From a virus: DNA of 64,000 bases. The notes beneath the pieces were generated by a model. That model worked only from the letters and a program-made list of their open reading frames with translations, was not told where the DNA came from and ran no database searches. Shown one piece after another: positions 47,568-63,004 of this stretch. Within the stretch, counting starts at the first letter, position 1. Each line of letters opens with the position of its first letter. The stretch lies in IMG/VR virus record IMGVR_UViG_3300031991_000112; one strand, 5' to 3'. The translations under genes and the position numbers were made by a program.

Positions 47568-49397
47568 ATGAAGAGAATTCTGATGTCCTGTCTCGCACTT
47601 TTTCTGTGCGTAGCCACTGTTCAAGCCGAAGAGCCTTTTTCAAAGCTCGTTGGTGATGTGCAGGTTGCGAATGTCCAAGAACCCGGTGGCGTCACTCGTG
47701 TGCCGTTCATCACTTGGGGTGGAGACGTTGCAACCTTCCACGCCAACGGTGGACTCAAAACCAAGCCCGGTTCCATTTTTGCAAATCAAGGTTTGAACCT
47801 TGAACTGACTCCCGGTGACGACTTCGTACAGCAGGTACGGGATTACATGACCGGTAAAACCCCGTACCTGCGTGGTACGATGCGTATGATTGGTCAAGCC
47901 TCTGAGGTTCTGAATTCAAACCCTCAGACCAAGCCGGTTGTTGTTTTCCAGATGACTTGGAGTGCTGGCGACCATATCGTCGGTATTGCATCCATCAAAG
48001 AACTCGGTGACCTCAAAGGAAAACGAGTTGCACTACAGCGTGGTGGACCTCACTTGGGTCTTCTTGACGACGCTTTGCGTGCCGCTGGCATGACTTGGAA
48101 AGACATCACTGTTGTGTGGTGTAAAGACCTGACTGCCACCGATGAGTCTCCTGCCGCCAAGATTCGTGCGGGTCTTGCCGATGCTGCTTGCGTGATCACG
48201 CCCGATATGATCGGTTTGACCGGTGGTCTCGATAGCAAAGGTTCTGGTGCTGAAGGAACTCTGAAAGACGCTCGTGTAGTGGTTTCAACCGCTCAGATGT
48301 CTCGCTCGATTGCTGACGTTTATGTCTGTCGTCGTGATTACTTCAACGCCAACAAAGAGAAGGTCCAGAAGTTTTTCGCTGGCTATCTCAAGGGGTGTGA
48401 AGAAATTATCGCCGAACAGAAGAAGTACAACGACGGCAAGGGTTCGTCCGCTGTTTACGTCAACGCCCTGAAGTTGGCTCAGTCGATCTACGGCGAAGAA
48501 GTCATCCCAACATGGGAAGTCGATGCACACGGTTTGGTTCTCGACTGTACCTATGTCCGTTTGCCCGGTAACGTCAGCTTCTTCACTGACGCTGGTAATT
48601 TGAACGGGTTTGAGAAGAAAATGGCTAACGCCCTTGACCTTGCTACAAGTTTGGGATTGGCGTCGAACCGTTTCGGTTTTGAAGCTCCCGGCTTTGACTA
48701 TCGTCAAGTAGCAACTCTGGCTGGCGTCGAATACGTTGCACCAGTTGCTTCGACTGGTCGTATTCAGGGTGAGATTGAAAAGTTCACCGAAGAGTTGGAT
48801 GACAACACGATCTTGACTTTTGTCATCGAATTCAAGCCCAACCAGAACACTTTCTCGGTTGACACTTACGGTGCCGAGTTCAAGCGAGTTATCGAGAATG
48901 CCAGCACGTTCGGTAACGCCGTGTTTGCTGTTCGTGGTCACGCTGATCCGACTGCCACTCTTCGCAGCTTCTTGAAGGCTGGAATGCAGAAGGGTATCAT
49001 CACCCGAACCGGTGAGAGCGAAGCCAATGGTGGAAAGGGTTACACCTACTACCTGCGTGGTAAAGAGCTTGACTTGAATCAGACTGACGCCTTGGTGCGG
49101 GAAATCCAGCAAGGGAACTTCACTGGTGCTTCGGAAAATCCGAATCAAGTCATGCAGGCAGCACTCAATTTGTCCCTGACACGTTCGGAAGCTATTAAGG
49201 ATGCGATTCTTGAGTTTGCAAAGGCTCAAGGGATCAACCTTGACCCTTCGCAAATCCAACCTCAAGGCGTCGGCATCCGTGAACCGATTGTCGCCAAGCC
49301 TACCAGCATGGAAGAAGCACAGCAGAATATGCGTGTCGAGTTCCGTCTGATCAAGGTTCCTGCCGAAGCTCTCAACGCTTCCGACTTCGATTTCTAA
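47568..49397 (+). CDS. Secreted NMT1/THI5-type substrate-binding domain fused to a C-terminal OmpA-like domain
   Basis: Signal peptide; VPFITWGGD, SAGDHIV, GKRVALQRGGPH; OmpA-like VRGHAD...LSLTRSEAIK...NMRVEF with internal insertion. Confidence 0.8.
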   Translation: MKRILMSCLALFLCVATVQAEEPFSKLVGDVQVANVQEPGGVTRVPFITWGGDVATFHANGGLKTKPGSIFANQGLNLELTPGDDFVQQVRDYMTGKTPYLRGTMRMIGQASEVLNSNPQTKPVVVFQMTWSAGDHIVGIASIKELGDLKGKRVALQRGGPHLGLLDDALRAAGMTWKDITVVWCKDLTATDESPAAKIRAGLADAACVITPDMIGLTGGLDSKGSGAEGTLKDARVVVSTAQMSRSIADVYVCRRDYFNANKEKVQKFFAGYLKGCEEIIAEQKKYNDGKGSSAVYVNALKLAQSIYGEEVIPTWEVDAHGLVLDCTYVRLPGNVSFFTDAGNLNGFEKKMANALDLATSLGLASNRFGFEAPGFDYRQVATLAGVEYVAPVASTGRIQGEIEKFTEELDDNTILTFVIEFKPNQNTFSVDTYGAEFKRVIENASTFGNAVFAVRGHADPTATLRSFLKAGMQKGIITRTGESEANGGKGYTYYLRGKELDLNQTDALVREIQQGNFTGASENPNQVMQAALNLSLTRSEAIKDAILEFAKAQGINLDPSQIQPQGVGIREPIVAKPTSMEEAQQNMRVEFRLIKVPAEALNASDFDF

Positions 49398-49410
49398 AGC
49401 GTTTGACAAT

Positions 49411-49441
49411 AAAGACCCTGCTGATTGTCAGCAGGGTCTTT
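49411..49441 (+). terminator. Hairpin/terminator
   Basis: AAAGACCCTGCTGA-ttg-TCAGCAGGGTCTTT. Confidence 0.75.
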
Positions 49442-49484
49442 GTCAAGCTTTCCAAATACAATCCATGTGTAGGAGAATTGAACC

Positions 49485-50390
49485 ATGAAGAGATTCCTTG
49501 CTGCTCTCGTTCTACTGCTTGTTGCTTCACAAGCGAATGCGGCTGAGAGCCGAAACAACATCGTGATCTTGCTTGATACTTCAGGCTCGATGAGTGAACA
49601 GATGAGAACTGTTCGACAGAGTAAGTGGGATGCGGCTAAGTCTGCTCTCATCAATGTCGTCGATCAGATTCCAGAAAACACAAACATTGGACTCCTGCTT
49701 TTCAATCCAGAAGATTGGCGTTACGATCTCGGTCCTGTCAACAAAGCCGATCTCACTCGTGCGATTCAGTCGGCACAAATCACTGATCGTTCTGGCACGC
49801 CTCTTGGCACTTACATGAAAAAGGGTGTTGATCGGCTTTTGCAGGAACGTGAAAAGTCTTTTGGTTACGGCACCTATAAGTTGTTGATCGTTACGGATGG
49901 CGATCCAACCAATGAGCCTTCTGGTCTTGTGGACAAATTCTTGCCGGATATTCTTGCTCGTGGTATCACGGTCGAATGTATCGGCGTGAGTATGGCGAGC
50001 CACAGTGTTCTCAAGGACAAAGTACACAAGTACATGTCTGCTGATGATCCAACTTCGCTGACACAGCAGATTCAGAGTACTGTGCTTGCTGAAGTTTCTT
50101 TGGAAGATGGAGTCGGCGGTTTTGAAGAGTTGAGCGGCATTCCTACGCCGACTGCCGAGGCGATCATCAGTACGTTGTCCACGTCGGGTAATCATCCGAT
50201 TGGCGAGAATCCTCCAAAGGTGATTGTGGATCAAGAGACTGGACAAACGCAAGTCGTACCGGGTGGACCAATTAACCCAACTCAGGCAGATAGTGGTATG
50301 GGCATCATCGGCGTCGTATTGATTGTTGTGGTCGTGGTTGTCCTTGCCTTTCTGTTTTGTGGTTGTGTGTTAAGCGGCAACCGTTATTGA
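49485..50390 (+). CDS. Exported vWA domain protein with C-terminal TM anchor
   Basis: Signal peptide; ILLDTSGSM MIDAS, GTPL, IVTDGDP; C-terminal hydrophobic helix. Confidence 0.88.
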   Translation: MKRFLAALVLLLVASQANAAESRNNIVILLDTSGSMSEQMRTVRQSKWDAAKSALINVVDQIPENTNIGLLLFNPEDWRYDLGPVNKADLTRAIQSAQITDRSGTPLGTYMKKGVDRLLQEREKSFGYGTYKLLIVTDGDPTNEPSGLVDKFLPDILARGITVECIGVSMASHSVLKDKVHKYMSADDPTSLTQQIQSTVLAEVSLEDGVGGFEELSGIPTPTAEAIISTLSTSGNHPIGENPPKVIVDQETGQTQVVPGGPINPTQADSGMGIIGVVLIVVVVVVLAFLFCGCVLSGNRY

Positions 50391-50420
50391 TCGTCCAGAT
50401 ACCGTCGAAGGAGGATTCCA

Positions 50421-51986
50421 ATGGGAGATAAAAGCATGTCAAAAGTCAAGATGCTCTTTGTGGGCATCGTTTGGCTAGGAATTCTTGGTGTTGGGGTTTT
50501 GGGGTATCGATGGATTTTCGTGCCTCAACAAGAGAAAGCCGCCGAACAAGCCGCCGAACAAGCGGCTGTTCAACAAAAAGAAGAACTTCTCAACCACACC
50601 AGTGCGAATGCACGGTACACAGAACAAGTACAGATCAACCTCGACTCTTTCAGTGGTTACTCTGTACTTCGTTCGGAAGAGTTCCGCAATGAACTCGGTT
50701 CATATAAGATTGGCTTGACCCTCAAAGACGATGGTGCCGACTACACACAGCGTCTCAAGGATATCCAAGACGGAAAGTCACAGTTCGCCGTCTTTACGGT
50801 AGACGCTTTGATCAAAGCGTCTCAGGAACTTGGCGACCTTCCGGGGACAATCATTTTTGTTGTTGATGAATCTCGTGGTGCTGATGCAGCAATCGGTGTG
50901 GAACGCATCATCAGTAACATCGATGCATTGAACGACCCGGAAACAAAATTTGTAGTCGTCCCCGACTCGCCTAATGAGACGTTGGCACGAGTCATTATGT
51001 CTTACTTTTCTCTCGACCGCCTTGGCAATGATCCGTTTATTCGAGTCAATTCAGCCAAGGAGTTGTATGAAATGTATAGGCGGCATAAGCCAACTGAGAA
51101 GCGTATTTTCGTGACTTGGGAACCTTATGTTTCAAAGATGGCAGAGAACCCCGACTACAAGATTTTGGTTGATTCAAGCAAGTTCCGTGGGTATATCGTG
51201 GATGTTATGGTGGTTAGCCGTGACTACCTTGCCAAGAATCCACGCCAAGTTCGCAATGTTACTGAAGCCTACTTTAGGTCGATGTTTCATCATCAAAACA
51301 ATCTGCCGCAGCTTTTGACAGATGATTCGATTCGGATTGGTGAACCCTTAAAGCCTGAATTGGCTGAGTCCTTGGCAGAAAAGATTCGCTGGCGGAACAC
51401 TCGTGAGAACTACGCTCATTTCGGTTTGGCTCAAGGAACTGGTCTTCAACATATCGAAGACGTGATCATCAACATCACACGAGTTCTGCGTCAGACCGGT
51501 GGTATTCCTGATGATCCAACCGGTGGTCGCCCGAACCAACTGTACTACGATCAGATTCTCAAAGACATGATGGCTGCGAACTTCCATCCCGGCAATGTCG
51601 GTGATCAAGAAAAGATCAGGGACGATACGCAGCTTGCGGCTCTTTCAGATGAGGATTGGAAACGTTTGGAACCAGTAGGAACTTTGCAGGTTCCAAATCT
51701 TGTATTCGCTCGTGGAACTTCTCGTTTGACCGAGAGTAGCAAGCATACGCTTGATGAACTGGTGCAAAAGTTGAAAGATGCTCCGCAGTTTTATCTTCTA
51801 GTTACCGGCAATGCTGGTCTTGAAGGTAACCTTGACGCCAATACAGCTTTGGCAATGTCGAGAGCGGAAACCGCAAAAGAGTATCTGATCAGTGCAGGAA
51901 TTCCAGCCCAACGCATTCGTGCGGTAGGTGGTGAACCGAGCGGTCAAACGATTGTTACATTCGTAGTCGGTCAGTTACCTTACTGA
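50421..51986 (+). CDS. Membrane-anchored substrate-binding domain fused to an OmpA-like domain
   Basis: N-terminal TM; DSFSGY, DESRGADA, VTWEPY, YIVDVMVV; OmpA-like AMSRAETAKEYL...GIPAQRI. Confidence 0.8.
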   Translation: MGDKSMSKVKMLFVGIVWLGILGVGVLGYRWIFVPQQEKAAEQAAEQAAVQQKEELLNHTSANARYTEQVQINLDSFSGYSVLRSEEFRNELGSYKIGLTLKDDGADYTQRLKDIQDGKSQFAVFTVDALIKASQELGDLPGTIIFVVDESRGADAAIGVERIISNIDALNDPETKFVVVPDSPNETLARVIMSYFSLDRLGNDPFIRVNSAKELYEMYRRHKPTEKRIFVTWEPYVSKMAENPDYKILVDSSKFRGYIVDVMVVSRDYLAKNPRQVRNVTEAYFRSMFHHQNNLPQLLTDDSIRIGEPLKPELAESLAEKIRWRNTRENYAHFGLAQGTGLQHIEDVIINITRVLRQTGGIPDDPTGGRPNQLYYDQILKDMMAANFHPGNVGDQEKIRDDTQLAALSDEDWKRLEPVGTLQVPNLVFARGTSRLTESSKHTLDELVQKLKDAPQFYLLVTGNAGLEGNLDANTALAMSRAETAKEYLISAGIPAQRIRAVGGEPSGQTIVTFVVGQLPY

Positions 51987-51992
51987 TCGTCC

Positions 51993-52028
51993 AAAATGGA
52001 CCGGGAGGCAGGCTCCCGGTCCATTTTT
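51993..52028 (+). terminator. Intrinsic terminator
   Basis: AAAATGGACCGGGAG-gcagg-CTCCCGGTCCATTTT. Confidence 0.85.
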
Positions 52029-52041
52029 ATTGGAGTTTCTC

Positions 52042-52794
52042 ATGAGAATACTTGTCACAAGTGGAGGCACCAAAGTTCCTATTGATAGCGTTCGTGATAT
52101 TACGAATATGAGCAAAGGAACCTTTGGAACCAAAATTGCGAAACTGTTCATGACCGCTGGTCATGAAGTTACGTTCTTTTATGGCAAAGACACCAAAACA
52201 CCACTCAAATTTGAGTTGGATTCGTTCCAACAGCCAGATTACGAACGCTCGATGAGTTTGTTCGCTGGGCATTTGATGGATGTTGCCCTGTATAAAGATC
52301 GTTACTCCGAGAGAGTCTTCCGTAACTTTGATGATTACGAAGATGGTTTTTGGAAATTGATGAACGCTTACAATTACGATATCGTTGTCCTTGCGGCGGC
52401 GGTAAGTGATTACGGAGTTGTTCCAATTTCTGGAAAAGCTCGTAGTAGCGAGGAATTGAAGCTTGAACTCTTTCCACTGCCAAAAATTATTTCAAAGGTC
52501 AAGCAGAAGTTTCCAGACACTTGCTTGGTTGGGTTCAAGTTGTTGGTTGGCAGCACTGATGAGGAATTGATTGCTGCTGTCAAAGCCAGCATGGAAAATA
52601 ACGGTTGTGATTTGGTTGTTGGGAATGATCTGCGTGATATCAAGCAAGGTGACCATCGGTTGTTGCTTGGTTTCAAAGATGGCGGCGAGGTTCTACCTTT
52701 TAGTACCAAACCCGACGACAGTGAATTTTTGGCATCAATTGTTGTTTCTTATGCCATCGAACAAAGGGTTTTACAAATCCAGAAAAGTTCGTAG
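52042..52794 (+). CDS. coaB: Phosphopantothenate-cysteine ligase (stand-alone CoaB)
   Basis: ILVTSGGTKVPIDSVRDITNMSKGTFG, LAAAVSDY, VGFKL, LVVGNDL. Confidence 0.88.
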   Translation: MRILVTSGGTKVPIDSVRDITNMSKGTFGTKIAKLFMTAGHEVTFFYGKDTKTPLKFELDSFQQPDYERSMSLFAGHLMDVALYKDRYSERVFRNFDDYEDGFWKLMNAYNYDIVVLAAAVSDYGVVPISGKARSSEELKLELFPLPKIISKVKQKFPDTCLVGFKLLVGSTDEELIAAVKASMENNGCDLVVGNDLRDIKQGDHRLLLGFKDGGEVLPFSTKPDDSEFLASIVVSYAIEQRVLQIQKSS

Positions 52795-52797
52795 AAT
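52770..52797 (+). promoter_or_regulatory. Conserved promoter upstream of coaC-M23
   Basis: TTTACA-aatccagaaaag-TTCG-TAGAAT. Confidence 0.65.
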
Positions 52798-52803
52798 ACC
52801 GTC

Positions 52804-53871
52804 ATGAACATCTTACTTGGAATAACCGGAAGTGTGGCAGCAAAGCTGGCACCTAAGTTGCAAACCGCTTTACAAAAGTTGGGTGATGTAACTTGTGTTG
52901 CTACGCAGTCTTCGCTCAACTTCTTGTCTGAAGAATTTGAGTGTCTTACAGACGCCGACGAGTGGGGTGTTTGGAAACAAGAAGAGAGTGTTTTGCATAT
53001 CGATCTTCGCCGTAAAGCATCTATTTTGGTGTTGGCTCCATTGGATGCTAATACTTTAGCAAAGATGGCGAATGGTTTATGTGACAATCTGCTTACTTCC
53101 GTCATTCGTGCGTGGGACACCAATCGTCCTATTGTGATTGCCCCGGCGATGAATACGTTCATGTGGGAACATCCTTTGACCGCCGAGCATATTCGGCGTA
53201 TTAGTGAATTGCCTTGTGTGCATGTGGTTCAGCCACAAACCAAAACTCTTGTTTGTGGTGATACGGGTGTCGGGGCGATGTGTGACATCGAACAGATTGT
53301 TTCCAAGGTTGAAGCTTTAACCAAATGGAGCTTCCCGTTGCTCGAACGTCGTGGTGTTCCGAAGGGGAATCATCCCGGTGCGTTTGGATACAAACGAAAA
53401 TATGATCGGCACACTGGTGTTGATCTTTATTGCGACGTTAGCAAGTACAATGCGGTCTATGCTGTTGAGTCTGGTGTTGTGGTTCAGATTGAACATTTCA
53501 CTGGATCGAAAGATAACTCACCTTGGTGGAATGATACCAAGTGTGTAATGATTGAGGGTGCGAGTGGTGTCGTCAATTATGGAGAGATTGAACCTGACGC
53601 CATTTATGTTGGTGCCCAAGTCAAGCGTGGTATGCAGGTTGGACGTGTAGTGCCGGTTTTGCCGGTTTTGCCTGAAGGTAAAGAGCGACCAGATTTACCC
53701 GGTCATTCACGTTCTATGTTGCATGTTGAGTTGTATGAACACGGGGTTCGCCGTGCCTCTGATAAATGGGACCATGATGGACCAACCCCACCGGGGCTTA
53801 AAGACCCGACGCCATATTTGTTGAATTGTAAAGATGGTGTTCAGGAGGTTCTTGAATGCCCGGTTGGATGA
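52804..53871 (+). CDS. coaC: Phosphopantothenoylcysteine decarboxylase (CoaC flavoprotein) fused to an M23 peptidase-like domain
   Basis: ILLGITGSVAA, HIDL, APLDANTLAKMANGLCDNLLT, PAMNTFMW, LVCGDTG; then RHTGVDLY...AVESGVV...MLHVE. Confidence 0.88.
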   Translation: MNILLGITGSVAAKLAPKLQTALQKLGDVTCVATQSSLNFLSEEFECLTDADEWGVWKQEESVLHIDLRRKASILVLAPLDANTLAKMANGLCDNLLTSVIRAWDTNRPIVIAPAMNTFMWEHPLTAEHIRRISELPCVHVVQPQTKTLVCGDTGVGAMCDIEQIVSKVEALTKWSFPLLERRGVPKGNHPGAFGYKRKYDRHTGVDLYCDVSKYNAVYAVESGVVVQIEHFTGSKDNSPWWNDTKCVMIEGASGVVNYGEIEPDAIYVGAQVKRGMQVGRVVPVLPVLPEGKERPDLPGHSRSMLHVELYEHGVRRASDKWDHDGPTPPGLKDPTPYLLNCKDGVQEVLECPVG

Positions 53872-54683
53872 CTTTACAAGAAACTCTTGACTCCACAGGA
53901 GAATCTATACCAACTTTCAGGAGAACGCACGTGAAACCCGAAAACAATGTAGTCGATAAGATTCGGCAAAAAATCTTACTCGACTTGTTCATCACGCCTT
54001 ATTCTTTGTTCCCATTCATTGGCGGTTGCAGTCTGTTGATGCTTGCTTGGGCGACCAAGGTTTATGGGATTTTTGCATTCGGTGGTTTCATCGGTTGTGT
54101 GCTTGGAATTGGCGTGGCTCTGACCAACTTCTTGTTCAACATCGACAAGTTTTCAGAGAAAGCTGTACAACAGGTCAAAGCGGCGATGATGAAGCAACGA
54201 GAGGGACAGTTAAATGAACTGGCTCGAAAGTTGACACTTACTCGTGAACGCAAGGATGATGACTGTCTGGAAGCGTTGCGTAGTTTGTACAAGGACTTTT
54301 TGCGTGATCTTGAAGACAATCGAATTGACGTGACGCCAGAGATCATCACGCAAGTTGACCATATCTTTGAAGAGTGCATTACTGCTTTGGACCACTCTTG
54401 CGACTTATACCACACGGCAGGAAACATGCCGAAGGGTCAAAAACAATCTGTCTTGGATAAACGGAATGCTGTTCTTGGTGAAGTTGAAGAGAGCGTCAAT
54501 TTGCTCTCAGACCTGATGGTTCAGGTTCGGACCATGAACACGCAAGAAAAGAAAATTCGTCTTGCAAAGTTGCGTGGTGAACTTCGTACACAATTGGAAG
54601 CCGCCGAAGCTACCAATGAGCGTATGTTGAACATCGAACATGGCGGTGTGGACGAAGATTATTCCGAATATCTCAAAGAGTAG
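53868..54683 (+). CDS. Two-TM protein with cytoplasmic helical domain (XpaC-like architecture)
   Basis: Two N-terminal TM helices then coiled-coil; ATGA overlap; directly upstream of pspA. Confidence 0.6.
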   Translation: MTLQETLDSTGESIPTFRRTHVKPENNVVDKIRQKILLDLFITPYSLFPFIGGCSLLMLAWATKVYGIFAFGGFIGCVLGIGVALTNFLFNIDKFSEKAVQQVKAAMMKQREGQLNELARKLTLTRERKDDDCLEALRSLYKDFLRDLEDNRIDVTPEIITQVDHIFEECITALDHSCDLYHTAGNMPKGQKQSVLDKRNAVLGEVEESVNLLSDLMVQVRTMNTQEKKIRLAKLRGELRTQLEAAEATNERMLNIEHGGVDEDYSEYLKE

Positions 54684-54685
54684 GT

Positions 54686-54713
54686 TTTACAAATCAATTC
54701 GACTTCGTAGAAT
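54686..54713 (+). promoter_or_regulatory. Conserved promoter upstream of pspA
   Basis: TTTACA-aatcaattcgac-TTCG-TAGAAT. Confidence 0.65.
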
Positions 54714-54760
54714 TGGTTAAGTCGTGGCAATAACACTTTTGGTCAAGAGGAGAACAGAAC

Positions 54761-55555
54761 ATGATCCGTTATTTGCGAGCACTTTGGTACTTTTGTACCG
54801 GACGATTTTCTGCCGCTGCTGAAGCACTGGCAAGCAATGAGTATGTGATGGCGGCGACCTATGATGCTGCTATCGAAAAGTCGGGTAACCGATACCAAAC
54901 GGTTCGCAACGCTGTCGCCAAGTTGGTTGGCATCGAGCAAGAGAGGGTTGCGAAGATCAAGCTGTTGACCGAGAAGTTCGAGAAGCTCGAAAAGGTCAAA
55001 CAAGGTGCGGCTGGCAAGGCGAAAATTCTCGCCCAACAGCTTCAGGCACAAGGACAGACCATCGAGCAAATCAAGTCCAATCCTGAATATCTGAAGCACA
55101 TGGCTGCGTTCCAAAACGCTGCGACTTCGGCAAAAGATGCTGAGACTGAAATTCAGCAGATCGAAGCCGAGTTGGATAACCAGCGTAAGCAGATCGCTCA
55201 GTACAAGATTCAGCTTCAGAACATGCAGCGTTCTCAAAAAGACCTGCAAGAAGAGAAGAATGCTGCTATCGCTGATGTTGCAGTCGCCAAGGAAATGCAA
55301 GCGGTCAATGATGTCCTCAACGGTGTCGCCACCGACACGACGGACAAAGACCTTGATGCTGCACGCAAAGCTCGTCAGCACGCCAAAGCAAGTGCTCAGA
55401 TCACGGCTGAATTGGCTGGCAACGATGCTCAGCTTGCGGAAGACGAGTATCTTCACTTCGCCGCTGACAACGATGCGTCCAGCGAGTTTGACGCCCTGAT
55501 CGGTCTCACCGAAGAGCCGAGCGGCAACTTCGATCCTGCCAAGTTGCCCGAATAA
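54761..55555 (+). CDS. pspA: PspA/IM30 family coiled-coil protein
   Basis: Amphipathic N-terminal helix, long heptad coiled-coil, C-terminal ...SEFDALIG pattern; ~260 aa. Confidence 0.7.
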   Translation: MIRYLRALWYFCTGRFSAAAEALASNEYVMAATYDAAIEKSGNRYQTVRNAVAKLVGIEQERVAKIKLLTEKFEKLEKVKQGAAGKAKILAQQLQAQGQTIEQIKSNPEYLKHMAAFQNAATSAKDAETEIQQIEAELDNQRKQIAQYKIQLQNMQRSQKDLQEEKNAAIADVAVAKEMQAVNDVLNGVATDTTDKDLDAARKARQHAKASAQITAELAGNDAQLAEDEYLHFAADNDASSEFDALIGLTEEPSGNFDPAKLPE

Positions 55556-55566
55556 CCAAAATTGTA

Positions 55567-55604
55567 AAGATAGCCCGTTGCTCTCTTGTAGCGGGCTGTC
55601 TTTT
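55567..55604 (+). terminator. Intrinsic terminator
   Basis: AAGATAGCCCGTTGC/GTAGCGGGCTGTCTT stem (with G-U pairs) plus T-tract. Confidence 0.65.
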
Positions 55605-55649
55605 CTTGTAGAGTTTGACATTCCCTGTCCTGTGTTAAGGAGAAGAACC

Positions 55650-56729
55650 ATGAAGTGTCTGATGTCCCTGAGTTTGTGTCTTGCGTTGTTTGTCGGTTGT
55701 AGTTCCGATAAGCCGGGTGAGGATGGTGCTGTGAAGGCACCGGCTTCAACCCCTGTTTTCTCGCTCACTTGGAGTGAGTACCCGTCTTGGTCGGTCTTCG
55801 GTGTCGCCAATGAGTTGGGCATCCTGAACGGCGAAGAAGGTCAGATGTCTGAGTTGGAACAGAAGTACGGCGTCGATGTCGTGTTGAAGGAAGCTGACTA
55901 CGATACCTGTATCCAGTATTACGGCACCGGCACGGTCGATGCCGCTTGCTTGACGAACATGGATACTTTGTCGCCTTCCCTCGGACGCCCGGCTCGTGGA
56001 ATTTTGCCGACTTCGACTTCTGCTGGTGCTGACGCCGTTCTGTCGGTGGAAGGTGCCACTCTAGTCGATCTGAAGGGCAAGAAGGTTTACGGTCTCGACA
56101 AGTCCGTGTCTGAATACCTGTTTGTGCGAGCGATTGAAGAAGCGGGTCTGAATCCTGCTGATTTCGAGTTCGTCGGTATGGACCCGTTCGCCGCTTCTCA
56201 GGCTTTGCAGACTGACAGCCCGAACGTCAAGTCGATCTGTGTCTGGAATCCGTTCAAGATGTCCACGTTGGACAAGCGAGCCGAAGCCGTTCTGGTTGTT
56301 GACTCCAAGGTGATCCCCGGCGAAATCGTTGACATGGTTGTGGTCGGCGAAGACAGCATGGCAAAAGAAGGTTCTGCCGAGTTCTGTGCCTGTATCTGTG
56401 AAGCCTACTACAAAGTTTGTCAACTGCTGAACGATCCGGCTACTCGTGACAAGACGCTCGTCGCTCTCGGTGCCAAGTTTTCAGACTTGAACGCTGAACA
56501 GATGGCGGTTTGCACGACGGAGACTGCGTTCTACGATACGCCTGATAAGGGTATCGCCTTGTTTGACGGCACCAATACTGATGGTTCCAAGTTGACCGAC
56601 ACGATGGTGCGTGTTGTGAAGTTCTGCGTCGATAAGCAGATTTGCGACAGCGAACCAACCGTCACTTTTGGCGGCAAGACTGATGGTGAATTCAACTTCG
56701 ATTCATCCTTCATGAAACAAGTCAAGTAA
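55650..56729 (+). CDS. ABC transporter substrate-binding lipoprotein (NitT/TauT, putative urea-type)
   Basis: Lipobox LFVG-C; WSEYPSW, TNMDTL, TSAGADAV, GLDKSVSEY, VWNPF, IPGEIVDMVV. Confidence 0.85.
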   Translation: MKCLMSLSLCLALFVGCSSDKPGEDGAVKAPASTPVFSLTWSEYPSWSVFGVANELGILNGEEGQMSELEQKYGVDVVLKEADYDTCIQYYGTGTVDAACLTNMDTLSPSLGRPARGILPTSTSAGADAVLSVEGATLVDLKGKKVYGLDKSVSEYLFVRAIEEAGLNPADFEFVGMDPFAASQALQTDSPNVKSICVWNPFKMSTLDKRAEAVLVVDSKVIPGEIVDMVVVGEDSMAKEGSAEFCACICEAYYKVCQLLNDPATRDKTLVALGAKFSDLNAEQMAVCTTETAFYDTPDKGIALFDGTNTDGSKLTDTMVRVVKFCVDKQICDSEPTVTFGGKTDGEFNFDSSFMKQVK

Positions 56730-56753
56730 TCCCGAAAAGGTTGCTGTGTCTTG

Positions 56754-56789
56754 AAAACCTCGTTGGAATCACTTCCAACGAGGTTTTTT
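56754..56789 (+). terminator. Intrinsic terminator
   Basis: AAAACCTCGTTGGAA-tcac-TTCCAACGAGGTTTTTT. Confidence 0.85.
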
Positions 56790-56791
56790 CT

Positions 56792-56819
56792 TTTATAAAC
56801 TTCCCATTCTTCGTATAAT
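56792..56819 (+). promoter_or_regulatory. Conserved promoter, same class
   Basis: TTTATA-aacttcccattc-TTCG-TATAAT. Confidence 0.65.
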
Positions 56820-56867
56820 CACCAAGGTGGTTTGTCAACTTTGGCATCAAGACTGAGAGGTTCTGAA

Positions 56868-57491
56868 ATGTATATCTTTGTGATTGACACTGACCAGTAT
56901 GCCGGTAATTTCGAGCGAGAGATGACCGCCTACATGACTGGTCAGTATGGTGATTGCGGTGTGGGTGCAGAACTCATTTCTGAGATTGAGTCGGCTGGTC
57001 TTTCCGCTGATTATTTCGAGGATTTGATTGACACCAGACCTGATGAGCACGGGTGTTATCGCCCTTGTAAGATTTGGCAAACTCCGGGTTGGTTCAATGA
57101 TGGTCTTGGTGGACACTTCCGTGAAGGTGATGAAGAGATCGCCAAGAAGCGTCATCGGGCAGAATGTCTCAAGAAGGCAAACGATCCAGTTGGCGTACAT
57201 CCCAACGACGTTGAACGTAACAAGAAGCGATGGCTGGAAGCGGCAGATGAGTTCAAAAAATACCCGGCGTACAACTCCGTGGCTATCTTCATGACTCGTG
57301 AGCCGACTGAAGAAGAAGTTCGTGTTCTCAAGCAGCGTGCTCACGATTGGACCAATTACGTTCAAACCAAGCAGGCGTGCTCAGCAGAATCGCCCGGCAC
57401 ATATTGCTTCTTGAAGTACGGAAACATTGAAGGGTTCCGTTTGATTCGAGAAGAAACCACACAAGAACAAGTCAAGAAATGGGAGTTGTGA
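56868..57491 (+). CDS. Phage-type hypothetical protein inserted in the ABC operon
   Basis: GAGAGG RBS; FVIDTDQYAGNFEREMTAY pattern. Confidence 0.7.
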   Translation: MYIFVIDTDQYAGNFEREMTAYMTGQYGDCGVGAELISEIESAGLSADYFEDLIDTRPDEHGCYRPCKIWQTPGWFNDGLGGHFREGDEEIAKKRHRAECLKKANDPVGVHPNDVERNKKRWLEAADEFKKYPAYNSVAIFMTREPTEEEVRVLKQRAHDWTNYVQTKQACSAESPGTYCFLKYGNIEGFRLIREETTQEQVKKWEL

Positions 57492-57492
57492 T

Positions 57493-58302
57493 ATGATTCG
57501 TCAAGAACTCGAATACAAGTGGCAGTTGGTTCTTGGTTGTGTTTCTTTGGCAGTGCTTGCGTTTGCTTACCAATGCCTGTCTTGGAACCGTCGTGCCGAG
57601 AACCCCAAAGATACGACCATGCCCGGATTGGTTGAAATCTTCACCGAAGGTACTTACAAAGTTTGTACCCCTGATGCATTTGACCATATCTGGATTGTCG
57701 AGGATTCCATTGCAACTTTTGGAAGACTCGCTGTTGGAATGGGAACCGGTGTGTTCTTCGCTTTTATCATCGGTGTATCAATGGGTTGTTTCTCGTATGT
57801 CGAGAGTGTCTTCCGATGGCCAGTTGTTTTCTTTGGTCAAATCCCACCAACTGCTATGCTCGCAGTTTATCTTGTTGTGTACACACTTACCGAGTTGCCA
57901 GTCGTCCCAATGATGGTGTGTTTTGGTATTTTACCAACACTCACCTTGACCATCTACAACTCAGTCAAGAATGACGTTCACGACGAGTCGGTTTACAAAG
58001 CTTACACTCTTGGTGCATCTAACGCCGAAGTGATCTGGAATGTTGTTGTCCAGCAGATTCTTCCACGTGTTCTTGACGCCATCCGTATCTGTATCGGACC
58101 AGCTTTGGTGTATCTCATCGCCGGGGAATGGGCGAATGAGCATGTCGGTTTCGGTTATCGGCTGAAACTTCAAGGACGTATGACGCACATGGCTGTTGTT
58201 TATAACTATCTTGTGTTTCTTGCACTTGCTGGTTATGGCATGAGTTGGGTTGTGCTTCGATTTCGACAATTCGTATCCCCGTGGTATGGGAATGGCAAAT
58301 AA
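57493..58302 (+). CDS. ABC transporter permease (NitT/TauT family)
   Basis: Multiple TMs; QIPPTAML; EAA-like AYTLGASNAEVIWNVV..QILP; GFGY. Confidence 0.88.
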   Translation: MIRQELEYKWQLVLGCVSLAVLAFAYQCLSWNRRAENPKDTTMPGLVEIFTEGTYKVCTPDAFDHIWIVEDSIATFGRLAVGMGTGVFFAFIIGVSMGCFSYVESVFRWPVVFFGQIPPTAMLAVYLVVYTLTELPVVPMMVCFGILPTLTLTIYNSVKNDVHDESVYKAYTLGASNAEVIWNVVVQQILPRVLDAIRICIGPALVYLIAGEWANEHVGFGYRLKLQGRMTHMAVVYNYLVFLALAGYGMSWVVLRFRQFVSPWYGNGK

Positions 58303-58313
58303 TGGAGACAAAA

Positions 58314-59270
58314 ATGAAAGACATTGTACTCGACATTCAAAAGTTGTCACATTGGTTCCCGAACACACACCTTCAATACGACGCTGGCACGAAGCGAGTG
58401 CTACACAACGTCGATTTGAAGATTCTGCGTGGGCAATTCACCGCTCTTGTTGGACCTTCGGGTTGTGGTAAATCCACTTTGTTCCGTGCAATCCTCGGAA
58501 CACACCCACCGTGTTCGGGTGCCGTTGTGATTAACGGCAAGAAGGTTGTATCACCGAACCGGAATGTCGGTATCGTCTATCAGAACTACAGTCTTTACGA
58601 CTTTCTTACAGCCGAAAAGAATGTGGCTTTTGGACCTATGCTCGATCAGACCAACTTGCTTCATCGTGCCTTTATGCCTTGGTACTGGTGGCCACTTCGC
58701 AAGAAGCATCTTGCCGAAGCAAAAGAGTGGTTGGTGCGTCTTGACCTCGAACGAGCCATTGGCTTATATCCACGTGAACTCTCAGGTGGTATGCGTCAGC
58801 GTGTTGCTATCGCTCAAGCGTTGGTCATTAAACCAAGCATCATTTTGCTCGACGAACCTTTTGGTGCTTTGGATGAAAGCACCCGTGAAGATTTGCAAAT
58901 GATGCTTTTGCGTCTCTATCAAGAGAACTTACAAGCCAAGGCAAATGGCGAAGAACCACCTTATACTGTTGTGATGGTGACGCACGAACTCAACGAGGCG
59001 TTTTACATCGCTGATCGTGTTGTTGGTTTGTCACAGTATTGGAAAGAGGACCATGCTAAGGTTGGCGAAGATGGATTGCACTATGGTGCAACTATTTGCT
59101 ATGATAAGCCCTGTCCAATCTTCCACCCAGACGAACCAAGAGATTTCAGTCGCTTTGCGGACCAAAAGGAAGAACTGAGAGAGGCTGTCTTTTCTCAAAA
59201 GTTGGTTGTTCCAACTGTCAATCGGACTTACTGGAACGACCGTGAAAACTCAGTGGAGGTACGTGTCTAA
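58314..59270 (+). CDS. ABC transporter ATP-binding subunit (NitT/TauT family)
   Basis: GPSGCGKST, VYQNYSL, LSGGMRQRVAIAQAL, LLDEPFGALD, VTH. Confidence 0.92.
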   Translation: MKDIVLDIQKLSHWFPNTHLQYDAGTKRVLHNVDLKILRGQFTALVGPSGCGKSTLFRAILGTHPPCSGAVVINGKKVVSPNRNVGIVYQNYSLYDFLTAEKNVAFGPMLDQTNLLHRAFMPWYWWPLRKKHLAEAKEWLVRLDLERAIGLYPRELSGGMRQRVAIAQALVIKPSIILLDEPFGALDESTREDLQMMLLRLYQENLQAKANGEEPPYTVVMVTHELNEAFYIADRVVGLSQYWKEDHAKVGEDGLHYGATICYDKPCPIFHPDEPRDFSRFADQKEELREAVFSQKLVVPTVNRTYWNDRENSVEVRV

Positions 59271-59704
59271 TGTTTGAATTCCATGAGGGTACTTACGACG
59301 AACTTTACCACGCTCTCGGTCTGATGGGGGCGGAAGCACGTAAGAAGAAAATTCAAGTGCTTCCTCACAATCCGAACGGCGACCTTCCGACTGGAACAAT
59401 GCCGGTTTACGCCGTTGGTACGGTTCAGGAACTCTGTGATCCAAATGTTGGAATTCGCTCTTGTTATGATGGTGAAAACCATCTCGACGATATTGTGTTG
59501 ATCGCCGATGATTATCCTTTCGCAGAAGATGGGGCGATTGGCTATGATCTCTTGACGAGCGAGCCATGTTATGGCAAAAATCAACGCCATTTTACCGCCG
59601 AAGAACTGAATTTCTTGTTCACTCTTGTTCACTCTTGGTTTTACGGCGAAGGACGGCGAAGGACGACGATACACTTGTTGGAAACTTCGCCGTCACTCAG
59701 ATGA
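59270..59704 (+). CDS. Hypothetical protein
   Basis: TAATG coupling to the ABC ATPase. Confidence 0.65.
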   Translation: MFEFHEGTYDELYHALGLMGAEARKKKIQVLPHNPNGDLPTGTMPVYAVGTVQELCDPNVGIRSCYDGENHLDDIVLIADDYPFAEDGAIGYDLLTSEPCYGKNQRHFTAEELNFLFTLVHSWFYGEGRRRTTIHLLETSPSLR

Positions 59705-59826
59705 GTGTGGTGATTCAGGACGGTTCGATTATTCTCACCGTCAAGGGTTTGGAAGAAGCGAAGGTCTACGAGTACAAGATGTTCTACAAGTTCATTCACC
59801 ACGTACTCTCACTCATTGAAGGATAA
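59701..59826 (+). CDS. Small hypothetical protein (41 aa)
   Basis: ATGA overlap with the upstream stop; fills the gap to the next gene. Confidence 0.45.
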   Translation: MSVVIQDGSIILTVKGLEEAKVYEYKMFYKFIHHVLSLIEG

Positions 59827-59829
59827 ACC

Positions 59830-60768
59830 ATGTCAGCCGAAATTGTGTTAATCATGGGGTATAACGCTGCTGGAAAGACAACCTTGACGCAAGGTTTTGT
59901 CCAACAGGGTTATACTCGGATCAATCGAGACGAGCTTGGTGGTAAGTTGAAAGACTTGCATGAACACGCCGAGAAAGCAATTTCGGAAGGCAAAGATCGT
60001 CTTGTTCTCGACAACACTTATCGCAATCGGGAGTCACGAAAATCTATTATCCAAGTCGCAAAAAAACATGGCATCCCTATTCGTTGCATCCATCTTAACA
60101 CGTCGTTTGAGGACGCTCAGTTCAATGCTTGTCAACGAATGGTGCGTGATACCGGCAAGCTACTGATGCCCGATGATCTCAAGTTGACCAAGAACCCGAA
60201 TCACTTTCCACCTGCCGCTCTTTTCGGGTATCGAAAAGAGTTTGAGAAACCGACTTCGGGAGAAGGGTTCAGTAAAATCGAGGTTGTTCCTTTTGTTCGG
60301 AAGCCAAATGGATACACGAACAAGGCTTTGATTTTGGACTATGATGGCAACCTGCGTGACTCTACTGGCTCCAAAGACTATCCAGTCAAGCCAAGTGAAG
60401 TTGTGTTGCTGCTGGGTCGAACTGAGAAGATTCAAGAGTATGTCGATCAAGGTTACATGCTGCTTGGGGTCTCGAATCAGAGTGGCGTTGCAAAAGGTGT
60501 ACTAACACACCAAGACGCTATCGACTGTTTTGAGAAGACCAACGAATTGCTGGGTCACCAGATCGAGTACCATTTTTGTCCTCACTCAGTTCCGCCAGTC
60601 AAGTGCTATTGCCGGAAGCCTCACCCCGGCATCGGTGTTTACTTGATCGAGAAACACAAACTCGATCCGAGTCAAACACTCTTTGTAGGTGATCAGACCA
60701 CCGACAAAACTTTTGCCGAACGGTGTGGTTTCCAGTTCTTTCACACAAATGATTTCTTTGGAGTTTAG
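59830..60768 (+). CDS. P-loop kinase fused to a HAD-IIIA phosphatase (PNKP-like kinase plus GmhB/HisB-like phosphatase)
   Basis: GYNAAGKTT, RINRD, VLDNT; LDYDGNL, VSNQSG, CPH...CYCRKP, FVGDQTTD. Confidence 0.82.
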   Translation: MSAEIVLIMGYNAAGKTTLTQGFVQQGYTRINRDELGGKLKDLHEHAEKAISEGKDRLVLDNTYRNRESRKSIIQVAKKHGIPIRCIHLNTSFEDAQFNACQRMVRDTGKLLMPDDLKLTKNPNHFPPAALFGYRKEFEKPTSGEGFSKIEVVPFVRKPNGYTNKALILDYDGNLRDSTGSKDYPVKPSEVVLLLGRTEKIQEYVDQGYMLLGVSNQSGVAKGVLTHQDAIDCFEKTNELLGHQIEYHFCPHSVPPVKCYCRKPHPGIGVYLIEKHKLDPSQTLFVGDQTTDKTFAERCGFQFFHTNDFFGV

Positions 60769-60770
60769 TC

Positions 60771-61304
60771 ATGGGATCACACATCGGTCATTCAAGGTTG
60801 GTTTACGGGTTTCAAGTTGGTGTTGAGGTTGAATTGGTTGATCGTAACTTCAGTCGATTCGACCCCAAGACCGGACAACCAATGAACGTCTCGTCCAAGA
60901 CGTTTGTTTCTAGTCTTGTCCTGAAAGATCAGTCTCGCACAATTTCTTTGCCCGATGAAACCGACACTTACGAAGAGTCTCATCAGAGTCGTGGCGGTTA
61001 TCCGATCCTGAGTCCTGCCTTTAACGATTGGGTTAAAACACGCCTGAGTCAGAAGATTTATGACTTCTTCAAGGCGGCTGGTCTTGAGGAAGATGGAGTC
61101 AAAAAGGACTTGTACTACTGGCGTGAGTCGTACTACCAGATGTCGGGGTCAAGTCTCGCTGTGGGTGTTGAGATCATTTCAGGACACGGCGAGAATGCCC
61201 GTCTTGTTGTGGTTTCCCCCGATTTGATCGAAGCCGCCAAAGAAGTCTTCTATGAGAAGATTGGACCATTGAGCTATTTGGTGTTCAGCCTCAGCCTAAC
61301 CTGA
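60771..61304 (+). CDS. Hypothetical protein
   Basis: 177-aa ORF with GGAG RBS. Confidence 0.65.
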   Translation: MGSHIGHSRLVYGFQVGVEVELVDRNFSRFDPKTGQPMNVSSKTFVSSLVLKDQSRTISLPDETDTYEESHQSRGGYPILSPAFNDWVKTRLSQKIYDFFKAAGLEEDGVKKDLYYWRESYYQMSGSSLAVGVEIISGHGENARLVVVSPDLIEAAKEVFYEKIGPLSYLVFSLSLT

Positions 61305-61333
61305 TTCTGTTGACTGCTTAAGGAGTTCGGTAA

Positions 61334-63004
61334 ATGTCAAATCATCGTTTTGTGCGGGAAATTTCTCGACTCATCAATACCGGACAGTCACGTTCTATCG
61401 TGCTGTCCGGTAATATCGACGACTTGTTTTTCGATGGCACGAGCTATGTGCCGTTGGTAGATTTCCTGTCAAAACGATACATGGTCAAAAAGCAAGAGGG
61501 TTCTCGTGGCATCGTACAAGTTTTGTACGAAGTCAATAAGAAGATCACCATTGTTGGTGAAGGTGCCCCTGCGTTGCGTTTGGCTTGGAAATCACTCAAG
61601 CCAAAAGACGATTTGGACGATTTGCTTGAAAAGTCCTTTGCAAATCCAACACTTGCAATGGAAGTTCTGCGACAACTCACGGTTGCTTCTCGTGAGTACA
61701 TGAAGAACAACTATGATCTTCTTTTGATCATTGAACGTGCTGATCTCATGTTGCCGCAAGCAGAGATTTCTCGCATGAACTATGCTGACCGCAAGCGTTG
61801 TGCAATTGTTCATGACTGGTTCAGCGATCCAGAGTTTTGCAATTCAACCGACTCGGTTGTATTGATCTCTGAGTCACGTAGTAACTTACACGAACTTGTG
61901 TCAAAGTTACCACAAGTTCTGGAAGTAGAAATCCCCTATCCAGATACCGAAACACGCAAGGCTTTTATCGAATTTCAAAAGCCTAGTGTACTTAGTACAC
62001 ATCCAAATCTTCCTGTACAAACCGCTGGTCTTTCTATTCACGCACTTCGCCAGTTGTTGTGTGAAGATGACATCGACAAAGATGCTGTCAACAACAAGGT
62101 TGAGGAATACATCTGTGCTCAACTTGGTGAAGATGTTGTGGAGTTCAAGCGACCCGAACATCGAATGGAAGATGTTGTTGGCTTTCAACAGATCAAGGGA
62201 TTTATCGCCAACGAGATGGTTCCTCGTTTTATGGCTGATGATGAGTCTTCGTTAGTTGGGGCGGCTGTTGCTGGACCTATCGGTGGTGGTAAGACCTTTA
62301 TCATGGAAGCTCTTGCTGCCGAACTTCACATGCCGGTTTTGGTCCTCAAGAATCTTCGTAGTCAATGGTACGGTCAAACAGATGTGATCTTTGAACGTTT
62401 GAAGCGTACTCTGACCGCCTTAGACAAGGTGATGATCTTTATTGATGAAGCCGATACTCAGTTTGGCGGCGTCGATAGTAATGCTCATGAGACAGAGCGA
62501 AGACTGACTGGCAAGATTCAGGCTATGATGTCTGATGTCAAGTTGCGTGGCAAGGTGATCTGGTTGTTGATGACCGCTCGTATTGAGATGTTGTCCCCAG
62601 ATATTCGACGCCCCGGTCGTGCCGGTGATTTAATCATCCCGATTCTCGACCCAGAAGGCGAAGATCGTACTGCCTTTTTGAAGTGGGTTCTCAAGTCTGT
62701 GGACACAAATCCTACTGAAGAAACTATTCAGTTGATTGGTGTTCACACTGAGGGTTATTCAGCCGCTTCCTTTGCAGCACTTCGCTCCATGATTAAAGCG
62801 AAGAAATGCAAAGGCATCGACGAGGTAATTGAGGTAGCTGAGGAAATTATTCCTAGTGACATCGAGTCCACTCGTCGTTACCAAACCCTCCAAGCTTTGC
62901 TAAATTGTACACGCAAGTCGCTTCTTCCCTTAGAGACTAACAAGTCTGTCAAGGAACAAAGAGAAGCTTGGCGTCAAGAGCTTGCAGAGTTGGAACGCAT
63001 CTAG
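61334..63004 (+). CDS. AAA+ ATPase (degenerate N-terminal AAA plus active C-terminal AAA)
   Basis: GPIGGGKT, IFIDEAD, LLMTAR, RRPGR; N-terminal module lacks a canonical Walker A. Confidence 0.85.
   Translation: MSNHRFVREISRLINTGQSRSIVLSGNIDDLFFDGTSYVPLVDFLSKRYMVKKQEGSRGIVQVLYEVNKKITIVGEGAPALRLAWKSLKPKDDLDDLLEKSFANPTLAMEVLRQLTVASREYMKNNYDLLLIIERADLMLPQAEISRMNYADRKRCAIVHDWFSDPEFCNSTDSVVLISESRSNLHELVSKLPQVLEVEIPYPDTETRKAFIEFQKPSVLSTHPNLPVQTAGLSIHALRQLLCEDDIDKDAVNNKVEEYICAQLGEDVVEFKRPEHRMEDVVGFQQIKGFIANEMVPRFMADDESSLVGAAVAGPIGGGKTFIMEALAAELHMPVLVLKNLRSQWYGQTDVIFERLKRTLTALDKVMIFIDEADTQFGGVDSNAHETERRLTGKIQAMMSDVKLRGKVIWLLMTARIEMLSPDIRRPGRAGDLIIPILDPEGEDRTAFLKWVLKSVDTNPTEETIQLIGVHTEGYSAASFAALRSMIKAKKCKGIDEVIEVAEEIIPSDIESTRRYQTLQALLNCTRKSLLPLETNKSVKEQREAWRQELAELERI

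Follow-up and report, generated by a model that had tools for sequence, protein, structure and literature searches.

A predicted phage-borne version of a bacterial operon combining PspA, a tandem AAA+ ATPase and an ABC transporter

The nine-gene block and its counterpart in bacteria

We analysed a 64,000-nucleotide stretch of viral DNA (IMG/VR record IMGVR_UViG_3300031991_000112; the whole stretch is called the window here), whose plus strand from 45.1 to 64 kb forms a single co-oriented gene block. The window proteins were scanned against Pfam, PHROG and NCBIfam, and their translations were read directly. Nine proteins of this block, designated A to I, are the subject of this study: a fusion of a substrate-binding protein (SBP) domain to an OmpA-like domain (A), a von Willebrand factor A (vWA) protein (B), a second SBP-OmpA fusion (C), a helical protein with two transmembrane (TM) helices (D), a predicted divergent PspA/IM30 protein (E), an SBP lipoprotein, permease and ATPase of an ATP-binding cassette (ABC) transporter (F, G and H), and a tandem AAA+ ATPase (I). 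All nine are intact plus-strand open reading frames (ORFs; Table 1), and every component listed in an earlier reading of this DNA from its letters alone (the original prediction) is therefore present.

Approximately 1,900 homologues of A were found, many of them named as Planctomycetota proteins. A pattern scan of 185,579 species genomes returned at least 358 with relatives of A, mainly in Pirellulales, Phycisphaerae and Verrucomicrobiota, with further cases in Lentisphaerota, Hydrogenedentota, Omnitrophota and Desulfobacterota; the cultured strains include Botrimarina colliarenosi Pla108, SH139 and SH449. Eighty loci were fetched and searched with the window proteins by tblastn, and the A to I order was recovered nearly everywhere. 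Two Phycisphaeraceae chromosomes of 5.5 Mb and 3.9 Mb each encode a run of SBP-OmpA, vWA and OmpA proteins, proteins of 248-255, 276-280 and 373-376 aa, a permease, an ABC ATPase and an AAA protein, which corresponds exactly to A to I with zero insertions. The gene for I follows H or directly precedes A in bacterial operons; because it adjoins the operon there, the AAA+ gene, which stands 2 kb off in the window, is a cognate operon member. The shared order goes far beyond chance, and as judged by gene arrangement the nine genes are one conserved operon. It is characteristic of Planctomycetota, Verrucomicrobiota and allied phyla, where its distribution is stable, chromosomal and largely tracks phylum-level phylogeny. 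The original prediction of a multi-component envelope module whose parts co-occur elsewhere is thus borne out by relatives of A in these at least 358 species and in several huge-phage contigs.

The window copy keeps the order, orientation and catalytic motifs of the bacterial operon despite interruption by six interleaved genes (CoaB-like, CoaC-M23-like, phrog_23621, an unknown gene, PNK-like and a second unknown gene). A is the most conserved operon protein, with a mean column identity of 66% across phyla, and is more conserved than any transport subunit. Its C-terminus reads GHAD...LS..R with an insert of approximately 60 aa; NCBIfam matches to SsuA and OmpA are weak, and orthologues at 57% identity bear PF00691. 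The SBP-like domain of C matches phrog_25518, which is common to A, and gives partial TIGR03427 and SsuA matches. A and C would thus supply two further SBP-like domains with OmpA-like tethers to peptidoglycan, A as a predicted soluble periplasmic protein and C as one anchored in the inner membrane. A signal peptide, a metal-ion-dependent adhesion site (MIDAS) motif DxSxS (DTSGS) and a C-terminal hydrophobic helix could be read from the sequence of B, which is syntenic across all loci and is predicted to be a membrane-anchored periplasmic vWA protein. By their matches, F, G and H together constitute a NitT/TauT-type ABC importer, and in the original prediction three ligand-binding domains would feed this one ABC core.

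The bacterial operon occurs in several variants. Of the 45 bacterial loci with enough flanking sequence, 26 encoded both E and I, 14 encoded neither, five encoded E only (mostly split operons) and none encoded I only, which suggests that E and I co-vary. The gap between C and F shrinks from approximately 1.7-2.3 kb where E is present to 0.75-1.07 kb where it is missing, the size of D alone. In the Pirellulaceae variant both E and I are missing and the transporter core is retained, and B is kept in all variants, including those that lack the AAA+ protein. The original prediction had treated the vWA and AAA+ proteins as an assembly-chaperone pair; this is not supported, as the AAA+ presence follows PspA and the vWA protein stays where the AAA+ protein is missing.

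A different occupant of the same position was found on Vibrio plasmid pAM7 (NZ_AP019800.1), where TelA (PF05816, 168 bits) stands in the PspA slot. The order on the Vibrio megaplasmids is ABC ATPase, SBP-OmpA, vWA, SBP-OmpA, a 257-aa protein, TelA, a TIGR03427-annotated SBP and permease; A is just 31-32% identical to that of the window, the AAA+ protein is lacking, and homology between D and the protein in the Vibrio D slot was not significant. Since PspA with its AAA+ protein, TelA or nothing may lie between D and F, the invariant core consists of A-B-C-D and F-G-H. From these arrangements, what fills the D-F slot appears to be a membrane-stress protein of the cytoplasm (TelA, or PspA together with its AAA+ protein); in some Pirellulaceae the slot is empty. 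A link to Tel-type stress clusters had also been proposed in the original prediction, and it has some basis in the TelA of the Vibrio megaplasmids; no TelA, TerD, TerB or TerC was found among the 20 window proteins scanned.

Table 1. Features of the window and their positions, counted from the first nucleotide of the 64,000-nucleotide stretch.
Feature	Position	Strand	Description
A	47568-49397	+	609 aa; signal peptide, NMT1/SsuA-type binding domain (Pfam NMT1 4.6e-11), OmpA-like C-terminus
B	49485-50390	+	301 aa; signal peptide, vWA domain (Pfam VWA 9.7e-14), C-terminal TM helix
C	50421-51986	+	521 aa; N-terminal TM anchor, short coiled coil, SBP-like domain, OmpA (PF00691, 9.9e-12)
D	53856-54683	+	275 aa; two TM helices and a helical domain
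E	54761-55555	+	264 aa; all-helical; divergent PspA/IM30 by profile-profile comparison
F	55650-56729	+	Lipoprotein SBP, NitT/TauT type; lipobox LFVGC read from sequence; Pfam NMT1
G	57493-58302	+	ABC importer permease; BPD_transp_1, TauC/SaoP-like
H	58305-59270	+	ABC ATPase, NtrCD/TauB/SaoA-like; Walker A, signature and Walker B intact
I	61334-63004	+	Tandem AAA+; Pfam AAA at residues 312-431
CoaB-like (DFP) and CoaC flavoprotein-M23-like fusion	52030-53871	+	Genes at 52030 and 52804; Pfam DFP 1.4e-28, Flavoprotein 2.3e-30
phrog_23621 protein	56832-57491	+	phrog_23621 4.6e-40; between F and G
Insertions between H and I	59270-61304	+	144-aa protein, PNK-like protein and 177-aa protein (starts 59270, 59830, 60771); none in bacterial operons
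PNK-like kinase/phosphatase	59830-60768	+	Pfam AAA_33 and PNK3P/HAD; same place in contig L090
Promoter-like motif TTWAYA-N16-TAKAAT	46781-46808, 52770-52797, 54686-54713, 56792-56819	+	Pattern match
Strong intrinsic-terminator-like hairpin	56753-56788	+	16-bp stem and T run, after F
Long antisense ORFs, 374 and 359 aa	48285-49409 and 54743-55822	-	Overlap A and E/F
PyrB-like aspartate/ornithine carbamoyltransferase	45166-46083	+	Flanks the module
AAA_33 kinase	47002-47538	+	Directly upstream of A
DnaE-like ORF	2609-3991	-	460 aa
PrkA, DUF444/YeaH and SpoVR/YcgB	5253-10399	-	Complete trio; PrkA with AAA_PrkA and PrkA domains
PfkB kinase-cytidylyltransferase-like fusion	12919-14307	-	HldE/RfaE-like bifunctional architecture
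PolA	40049-42039 region	-	436 aa

Assignment of proteins E, I and D

The assignment of E to PspA was decided by profile-profile comparison. On its own, E gave no PF04012 match at E≤1 and did not reach the Pfam gathering cut-off of 33.9 bits; of 36 orthologues, 19 matched PF04012 at E≤1, the best at 4.5e-6, and whole-genome scans of four operon-bearing genomes gave no PF04012 match at the E locus. We therefore sampled 81 Planctomycetota genomes, 18 of which contained a canonical PspA_IM30 match over the Pfam cut-off, and aligned 16 Planctomycetota PspA_IM30 matches (15 over the cut-off) as a reference profile. The E family matched this profile by hhalign with a probability of 97.4% and an E-value of 1.5e-11 over 211 columns, in an alignment that runs from the N-terminal amphipathic helix to the C-terminus and leaves an insert of approximately 30 residues in E at the hairpin tip. 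When the E profile was compared with just one sequence, E. coli PspA, it did not match (hhalign probability 0.4). Against the Protein Data Bank (PDB), the top matches of the E family profile were Vipp1 and PspA, co-linear and with an E-value of 0.004.

The structural evidence for E is compatible with this assignment and less discriminating. An AlphaFold2 (AF2) model (predicted local distance difference test score, pLDDT, 79) placed helices at residues 2-25, 27-96, 108-191, 195-236 and 242-247, corresponding to a0, a1, a2/3, a4 and a5. Matches to PspA (4whe, Z 11.3) and Vipp1 (8qfv, Z 11.2) lie within the helical-hairpin noise band, as do the PspA, Vipp1 and Snf7 entries listed by VIA-align, and Foldseek against the PDB returned non-discriminating coiled-coil or helical-bundle matches only for both E and D. 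Because the comparison with the 16-sequence profile is decisive, E is, on profile evidence, a true but divergent PspA/IM30 of the ESCRT-III superfamily, and the original PspA call stands. A PspA_IM30 match above the Pfam cut-off was present in none of five operon-bearing Planctomycetota-Verrucomicrobiota-Chlamydiota (PVC) genomes (G003-G007), and these five may have no PspA other than the divergent one of the operon.

Alignment of I with 21 operon orthologues at 50-56% identity delineated two AAA domains. The N-terminal AAA-like domain is degenerate, with conserved motifs that lack a P-loop and no GK[ST] in the N-terminal half, and the C-terminal domain is a classical AAA domain with GPIGGGKT, DEAD and RRPGR motifs, which is predicted to be active. 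These motifs give I the domain layout that Ravi et al. (2024, mSystems, PMC11237479) describe as "inactive classical AAA + classical AAA". We considered I as a member of Vps4/CdvC and ruled this out, since it scored 37 bits against CdvC (cut-off 650) and its N-terminus is a degenerate AAA-like domain, not MIT. Two Planctomycetota genomes (L115 and L117) were seen to have a PF04012 match (54 bits, over the cut-off, and 32 bits, just under it) adjoining an A-like NMT1-type SBP at 26-29% identity to A; these pairs are possibly cases of the simpler combination of PspA with an SBP that Ravi et al. reported.

D is always encoded between C and E or F. Its AF2 model (mean pLDDT 79.6) has TM helices at residues 32-67 and a cytoplasmic helical bundle from approximately 94 to 262. 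Searches gave no Pfam family, PDB sequence or outstanding fold match for D, and structure searches returned generic helical bundles. PspM (Rv2743c), the mycobacterial PspA partner with two TM helices, was the first named neighbour in the ESM Atlas (0.86, TM-score 0.39), a weak lead. Neither an IncA-like nor a PspM-like identity went beyond a lead, and the likeness of D to PspM is confined to its placement and architecture.

The module in a huge-phage lineage

The window's DNA comes from biofilm and cave metagenomes. Its closer relatives are one IMG/VR contig (L002) and metagenomic contigs ranging in length from 91 kb to 622 kb. In L002, L089 (622 kb), L090 and L091 the module lies downstream of DnaB, PolA and AAA_33 kinase genes. 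Identity to the window is 56-72% for A, 53-72% for DnaB and 38-58% for PolA; as the divergence of the module parallels that of DnaB and PolA, the module would have descended vertically within the phage lineage. The phage copies retain the gene order and orientation, open reading frames and the motifs of the MIDAS, Walker and OmpA types, with GHAD and LS..R of A present in all of them, and E and I are kept intact across the lineage at 40-70% divergence. In GenBank the window comes nearest to LR756511, a 595-kb uncultured phage that carries a related copy of the module (A 49% identical) and also shares PolA (33% over 98% of its length) and a DnaE-PHP protein (48%) with the window; a megablast search of the block against GenBank phages gave zero matches. 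An IS605 OrfB/TnpB (Cas12f-like) gene was also noted between DnaB and PolA in L090 (3317-4489, minus strand).

In trees of A, 19 sequences form a well-supported clade that comprises the window, L002 and 17 metagenomic proteins; contigs were examined for four of its members, and all four are phage-like. Its tie to any one bacterial clade is weak (support 82 in one tree and 28 in another), and a single clade for the window lineage and LR756511 was not rejected (approximately unbiased, AU, test p 0.425). A separate group, L003-L006, in which C retains the OmpA part alone, is placed robustly among Verrucomicrobiota-type sequences. As the L003 contig is flagged as a provirus by IMG/VR, this group is not counted as an independent phage capture, and a scenario of three or more independent captures is weakened by both this flag and the AU result. 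A planctomycete or other PVC host is suggested for the phage lineage, although it is not proven.

An assembly artefact, in which a bacterial fragment was misjoined to a phage contig, was weighed against this picture. The genes are clearly bacterial in origin, the GC content of 0.47-0.50 at 46-60 kb is slightly above the 0.43-0.46 of the remainder of the window, and one module-bearing contig carries the provirus flag just mentioned. However, the window proteins are just 40-60% identical to any bacterial copy, phage-type genes (phrog_23621, PNK and CoaBC) are interleaved with the operon, and the module recurs in four independent related contigs, in each case at this position behind DnaB and PolA. 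In addition, a cave-metagenome run from a second study contains one third of the window's sequence words. The 40-60% divergence, the phage genes scattered through the operon and the synteny in independent contigs together exclude misassembly of a host fragment, to which we assign a negligible probability. As the original prediction had it, the module is phage-borne, with a divergence that matches its flanks; on this genomic evidence the window is best read as part of a huge phage and its module as truly phage-borne and bacterial in origin.

Insertions vary between members of the lineage. The CoaB/CoaC pair, between C and D, has no counterpart in any bacterial operon or in most phage copies and was found at the same place in the 622-kb relative L089 only, which marks it as a probable insertion outside the ancestral operon; we noted that CoaC is fused at its C-terminus to an M23-peptidase-like domain and that the CoaB-like protein is encoded separately. 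A PNK gene separates H from I in the window and in L090, and small ORFs occur in L091. In a tblastn search of phages, homologues of the phrog_23621 protein (34-36% identity) were found in Cronobacter GAP31-like phages, where they adjoin PRPP synthetase, and in Bacillus phage G; the gene was not found in the bacterial operons compared. Two long antisense ORFs were rejected as genes and regarded as shadows of conserved sense genes, though at least the first gives tblastn matches in relatives.

Several other genes of the window were recorded. A PyrB-like gene flanks the module, and the AAA_33 kinase gene lies directly upstream of A in all phage relatives. Elsewhere the window encodes gp32, a UvsX/RecA-like protein, a DnaB-like helicase, PolA, a DnaE PHP fragment, thymidylate synthase, a DNA methyltransferase and an HNH endonuclease. 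The DnaE-like ORF covers the PHP domain and no more than the beginning of the polymerase domain. The match of PolA to its Pfam model is confined to the C-terminal portion, and a gene for an HNH homing endonuclease stands immediately before the PolA gene. These layouts suggest split polymerase genes. The window also encodes an HldE/RfaE-like fusion and a complete set of PrkA, YeaH and SpoVR, which is a bacterial starvation/sporulation kinase module.

Promoter-like motifs were found within the block; they would be candidates for the dedicated promoters from which the original prediction had the module expressed early. The pattern TTWAYA-N16-TAKAAT (with a TYCG extension), which was picked after the sites had been seen, has four matches in the window, all on the plus strand and all in this block, where 0.05 were expected. 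The motif was not found in related loci, and a generic sigma-70 scan was not enriched (21 sites against 18.7 in shuffles).

Proposed function and comparison with known systems

We think it fairly probable that the block is a phage-borne nine-gene envelope operon, captured whole by an ancestor of the lineage and inherited vertically since, which couples host-derived membrane maintenance to periplasmic sensing or uptake. In the mechanism we propose, A, B, C, D, F, G and H would form a wall-tethered periplasmic unit that senses or imports a solute; this core is also found where E and I are lacking. PspA would assemble into a polymer on the cytoplasmic side of the inner membrane, where D may dock it, and the AAA+ protein would remodel or disassemble the polymer with ATP and so recycle PspA, as Vps4 does for ESCRT-III. 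The likeliest benefit to the phage would be a host cytoplasmic membrane that stays sealed and energised through the long infection cycle of a very large phage; solute import may perhaps serve the phage as well.

Several observations weigh against this interpretation. The mechanistic steps are all our inference. The absences of E and I trace to only two independent losses, and their co-variation is not significant. D matched neither the E family nor canonical PspA by hhalign (probability <5%), and an HMM (hidden Markov model) for PspM (PF25587) found nothing at the D locus in five operon-bearing genomes, which gave only noise-level matches (E at least 0.03), as did control genomes. D also persists where PspA is missing, which makes its proposed docking role weak. 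The AAA+ protein was not detected in LR756511 or the L003 contig, a weak negative, and the ATPase may be dispensable in phages. The terminator-like hairpin and the promoter-like motifs appear to split the phage copy into several transcription units, so that coordinated expression is not assured, and no RNA run holding window sequence was found in a read-run search.

The block could instead be an auxiliary set for nutrient uptake, in which the ABC importer (F, G and H, with A and C as extra receptors) feeds a nitrogen, sulfur or carbon compound into nucleotide or cofactor synthesis by the phage, with PspA and the AAA+ protein as passengers. The best matches of the transporter subunits fit such a role: F to TIGR03427 ("putative urea ABC transporter SBP"; 1.6e-40), G to TauC/SaoP and H to NtrCD. 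So do the Pirellulaceae operons in which the transporter core occurs without PspA and the AAA+ protein, and the metabolic neighbours in the window (a PyrB-like aspartate transcarbamoylase, CoaB/CoaC, a PNK-like enzyme and thymidylate synthase). However, all transporter matches are far under the equivalog cut-offs (F 139 bits against a cut-off of 334, G 66 against 295 for SaoP, H 162 against 292 for NtrCD), so that the NCBIfam scan supports assignment to the NitT/TauT family and reaches no equivalog-level match with a defined substrate. E and I have stayed intact, with their catalytic motifs, throughout the phage lineage, the wall-tethered receptor A is conserved above any transport subunit, and ordinary importers have no role for B, C and D. 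We judge this explanation unlikely.

Exclusion of superinfecting phages, a role also raised in the original prediction, or defence more generally, would have the altered periplasm and wall (vWA protein and OmpA anchors) and membrane (PspA) block the entry of rivals. Six of the nine proteins are envelope-located, and exclusion of rivals by phage-encoded envelope proteins is common. PADLOC nevertheless returned no specific match for the module, only generic ABC and AAA P-loop matches on H and I; the bacterial operon has the stable chromosomal, phylum-tracking pattern described above and not that of a defence island, and the module contains no nuclease, toxin or abortive-infection component. We consider this role quite improbable.

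A more far-reaching version of the favoured interpretation, which we offer tentatively and regard as doubtful, is an ATP-driven ESCRT-III-like machine, consisting of a PspA polymer, an AAA+ disassemblase and a two-TM docking protein, that is coupled to an ABC transporter through wall-tethered receptors and a vWA adaptor and with which the huge phages that infect PVC-type bacteria, using a copy of their own, would remodel the host cytoplasmic membrane or close it again during infection. If true, this would be a phage-controlled bacterial counterpart of ESCRT-III/Vps4. PspA and Vipp1 are bacterial ESCRT-III proteins, and we know of no Vps4-like partner for the disassembly of PspA or Vipp1 polymers that has been demonstrated experimentally. 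The operon pairs PspA with a classical AAA+ protein of its own in hundreds of species, and the phage copies suggest that the whole set is a portable unit which it pays to retain even over deep divergence. A defined nine-gene cassette for studying ATP-dependent PspA remodelling and its link to sensing or transport would thus be available in the phage copy or in a cultured planctomycete such as Botrimarina colliarenosi Pla108. The phage module also adds to a picture of huge phages that carry whole host envelope-maintenance systems.

Compared with the E. coli PspFABC, B. subtilis LiaIH and M. tuberculosis ClgR-PspA-PspM systems, the module likewise encodes PspA adjoining a small membrane partner, and the placement of D resembles that of PspM or LiaI. 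It differs in lacking PspB/C, PspF, LiaFSR and ClgR, in having a dedicated AAA+ protein and transporter, in an E too diverged for the Pfam cut-off and in a D that fails the PspM HMM. The likeness to ESCRT-III/Vps4 (CdvB/CdvC, Snf7/Vps4) is one by analogy of logic, an ESCRT-III-superfamily protein with a classical-clade AAA+ protein, whereas a degenerate AAA domain replaces MIT and there are no ESCRT-I or ESCRT-II parts. F, G and H correspond to the three canonical subunits of TauABC, SsuABC, NrtABCD and the TIGR03427 SBP, with their best matches in that family, and the module differs from NitT/TauT importers in its two added SBP domains, which are covalently joined to peptidoglycan-binding domains. 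The Vibrio megaplasmid variant (pAM7) shares the relative order and differs in having TelA for PspA, no AAA+ protein and a distant A (31-32%).

Two studies come closest to the locus described here, and with them the claim of the original prediction that the system is undescribed falls away. Yuan & Chen (2026, bioRxiv 10.64898/2026.10.24.761521) collected 189 huge-phage pspA genes, 15 of which adjoin a complete ABC transporter (SBP, permease and ATPase), and proposed a role in membrane-stress management. Their loci resemble the window in having huge-phage PspA beside a complete ABC transporter; the preprint makes no mention of an AAA+ protein, Planctomycetota, OmpA fusions in this context or a whole bacterial operon, and the vWA protein that it describes is part of a separate TerD/Ca-ATPase module of Bacillota-type phages. 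Ravi et al. (PMC11237479) described in silico an operon of PspA, a tandem AAA+ protein, a TM-anchored "Snf7", an ABC ATPase, a permease and a SIG+PBPb+OmpA protein (example OGG56892.1) and proposed ATP-dependent membrane remodelling linked to solute transport. The window shares with it PspA, a two-domain AAA+ protein with a dead N-terminal copy, a membrane-anchored helical protein and, in one operon, an ABC ATPase, a permease and a secreted periplasmic binding protein (PBP)-OmpA fusion, with the same functional logic. In contrast, their example comprises six genes, differently ordered and without one for a vWA protein, whereas the window has nine, among them an extra TM-anchored SBP-OmpA protein, a separate lipoprotein SBP and a vWA protein, and lies on a phage; D, like the "Snf7" protein, is membrane-anchored and helical, with no Snf7 or PspA homology seen (hhalign <5%).

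To these accounts we add that the phage block is the entire nine-gene PVC operon, AAA+ protein included; that its divergence pattern indicates vertical inheritance in a huge-phage lineage with lineage-specific insertions; and that, as far as profiles and gene order can tell, the same slot is occupied by PspA, TelA or nothing, with E identified as PspA by profile-profile comparison. Taken together, the comparisons identify the module as real and host-derived, and as a predicted phage-borne, extended version of the kind of operon already described in silico.

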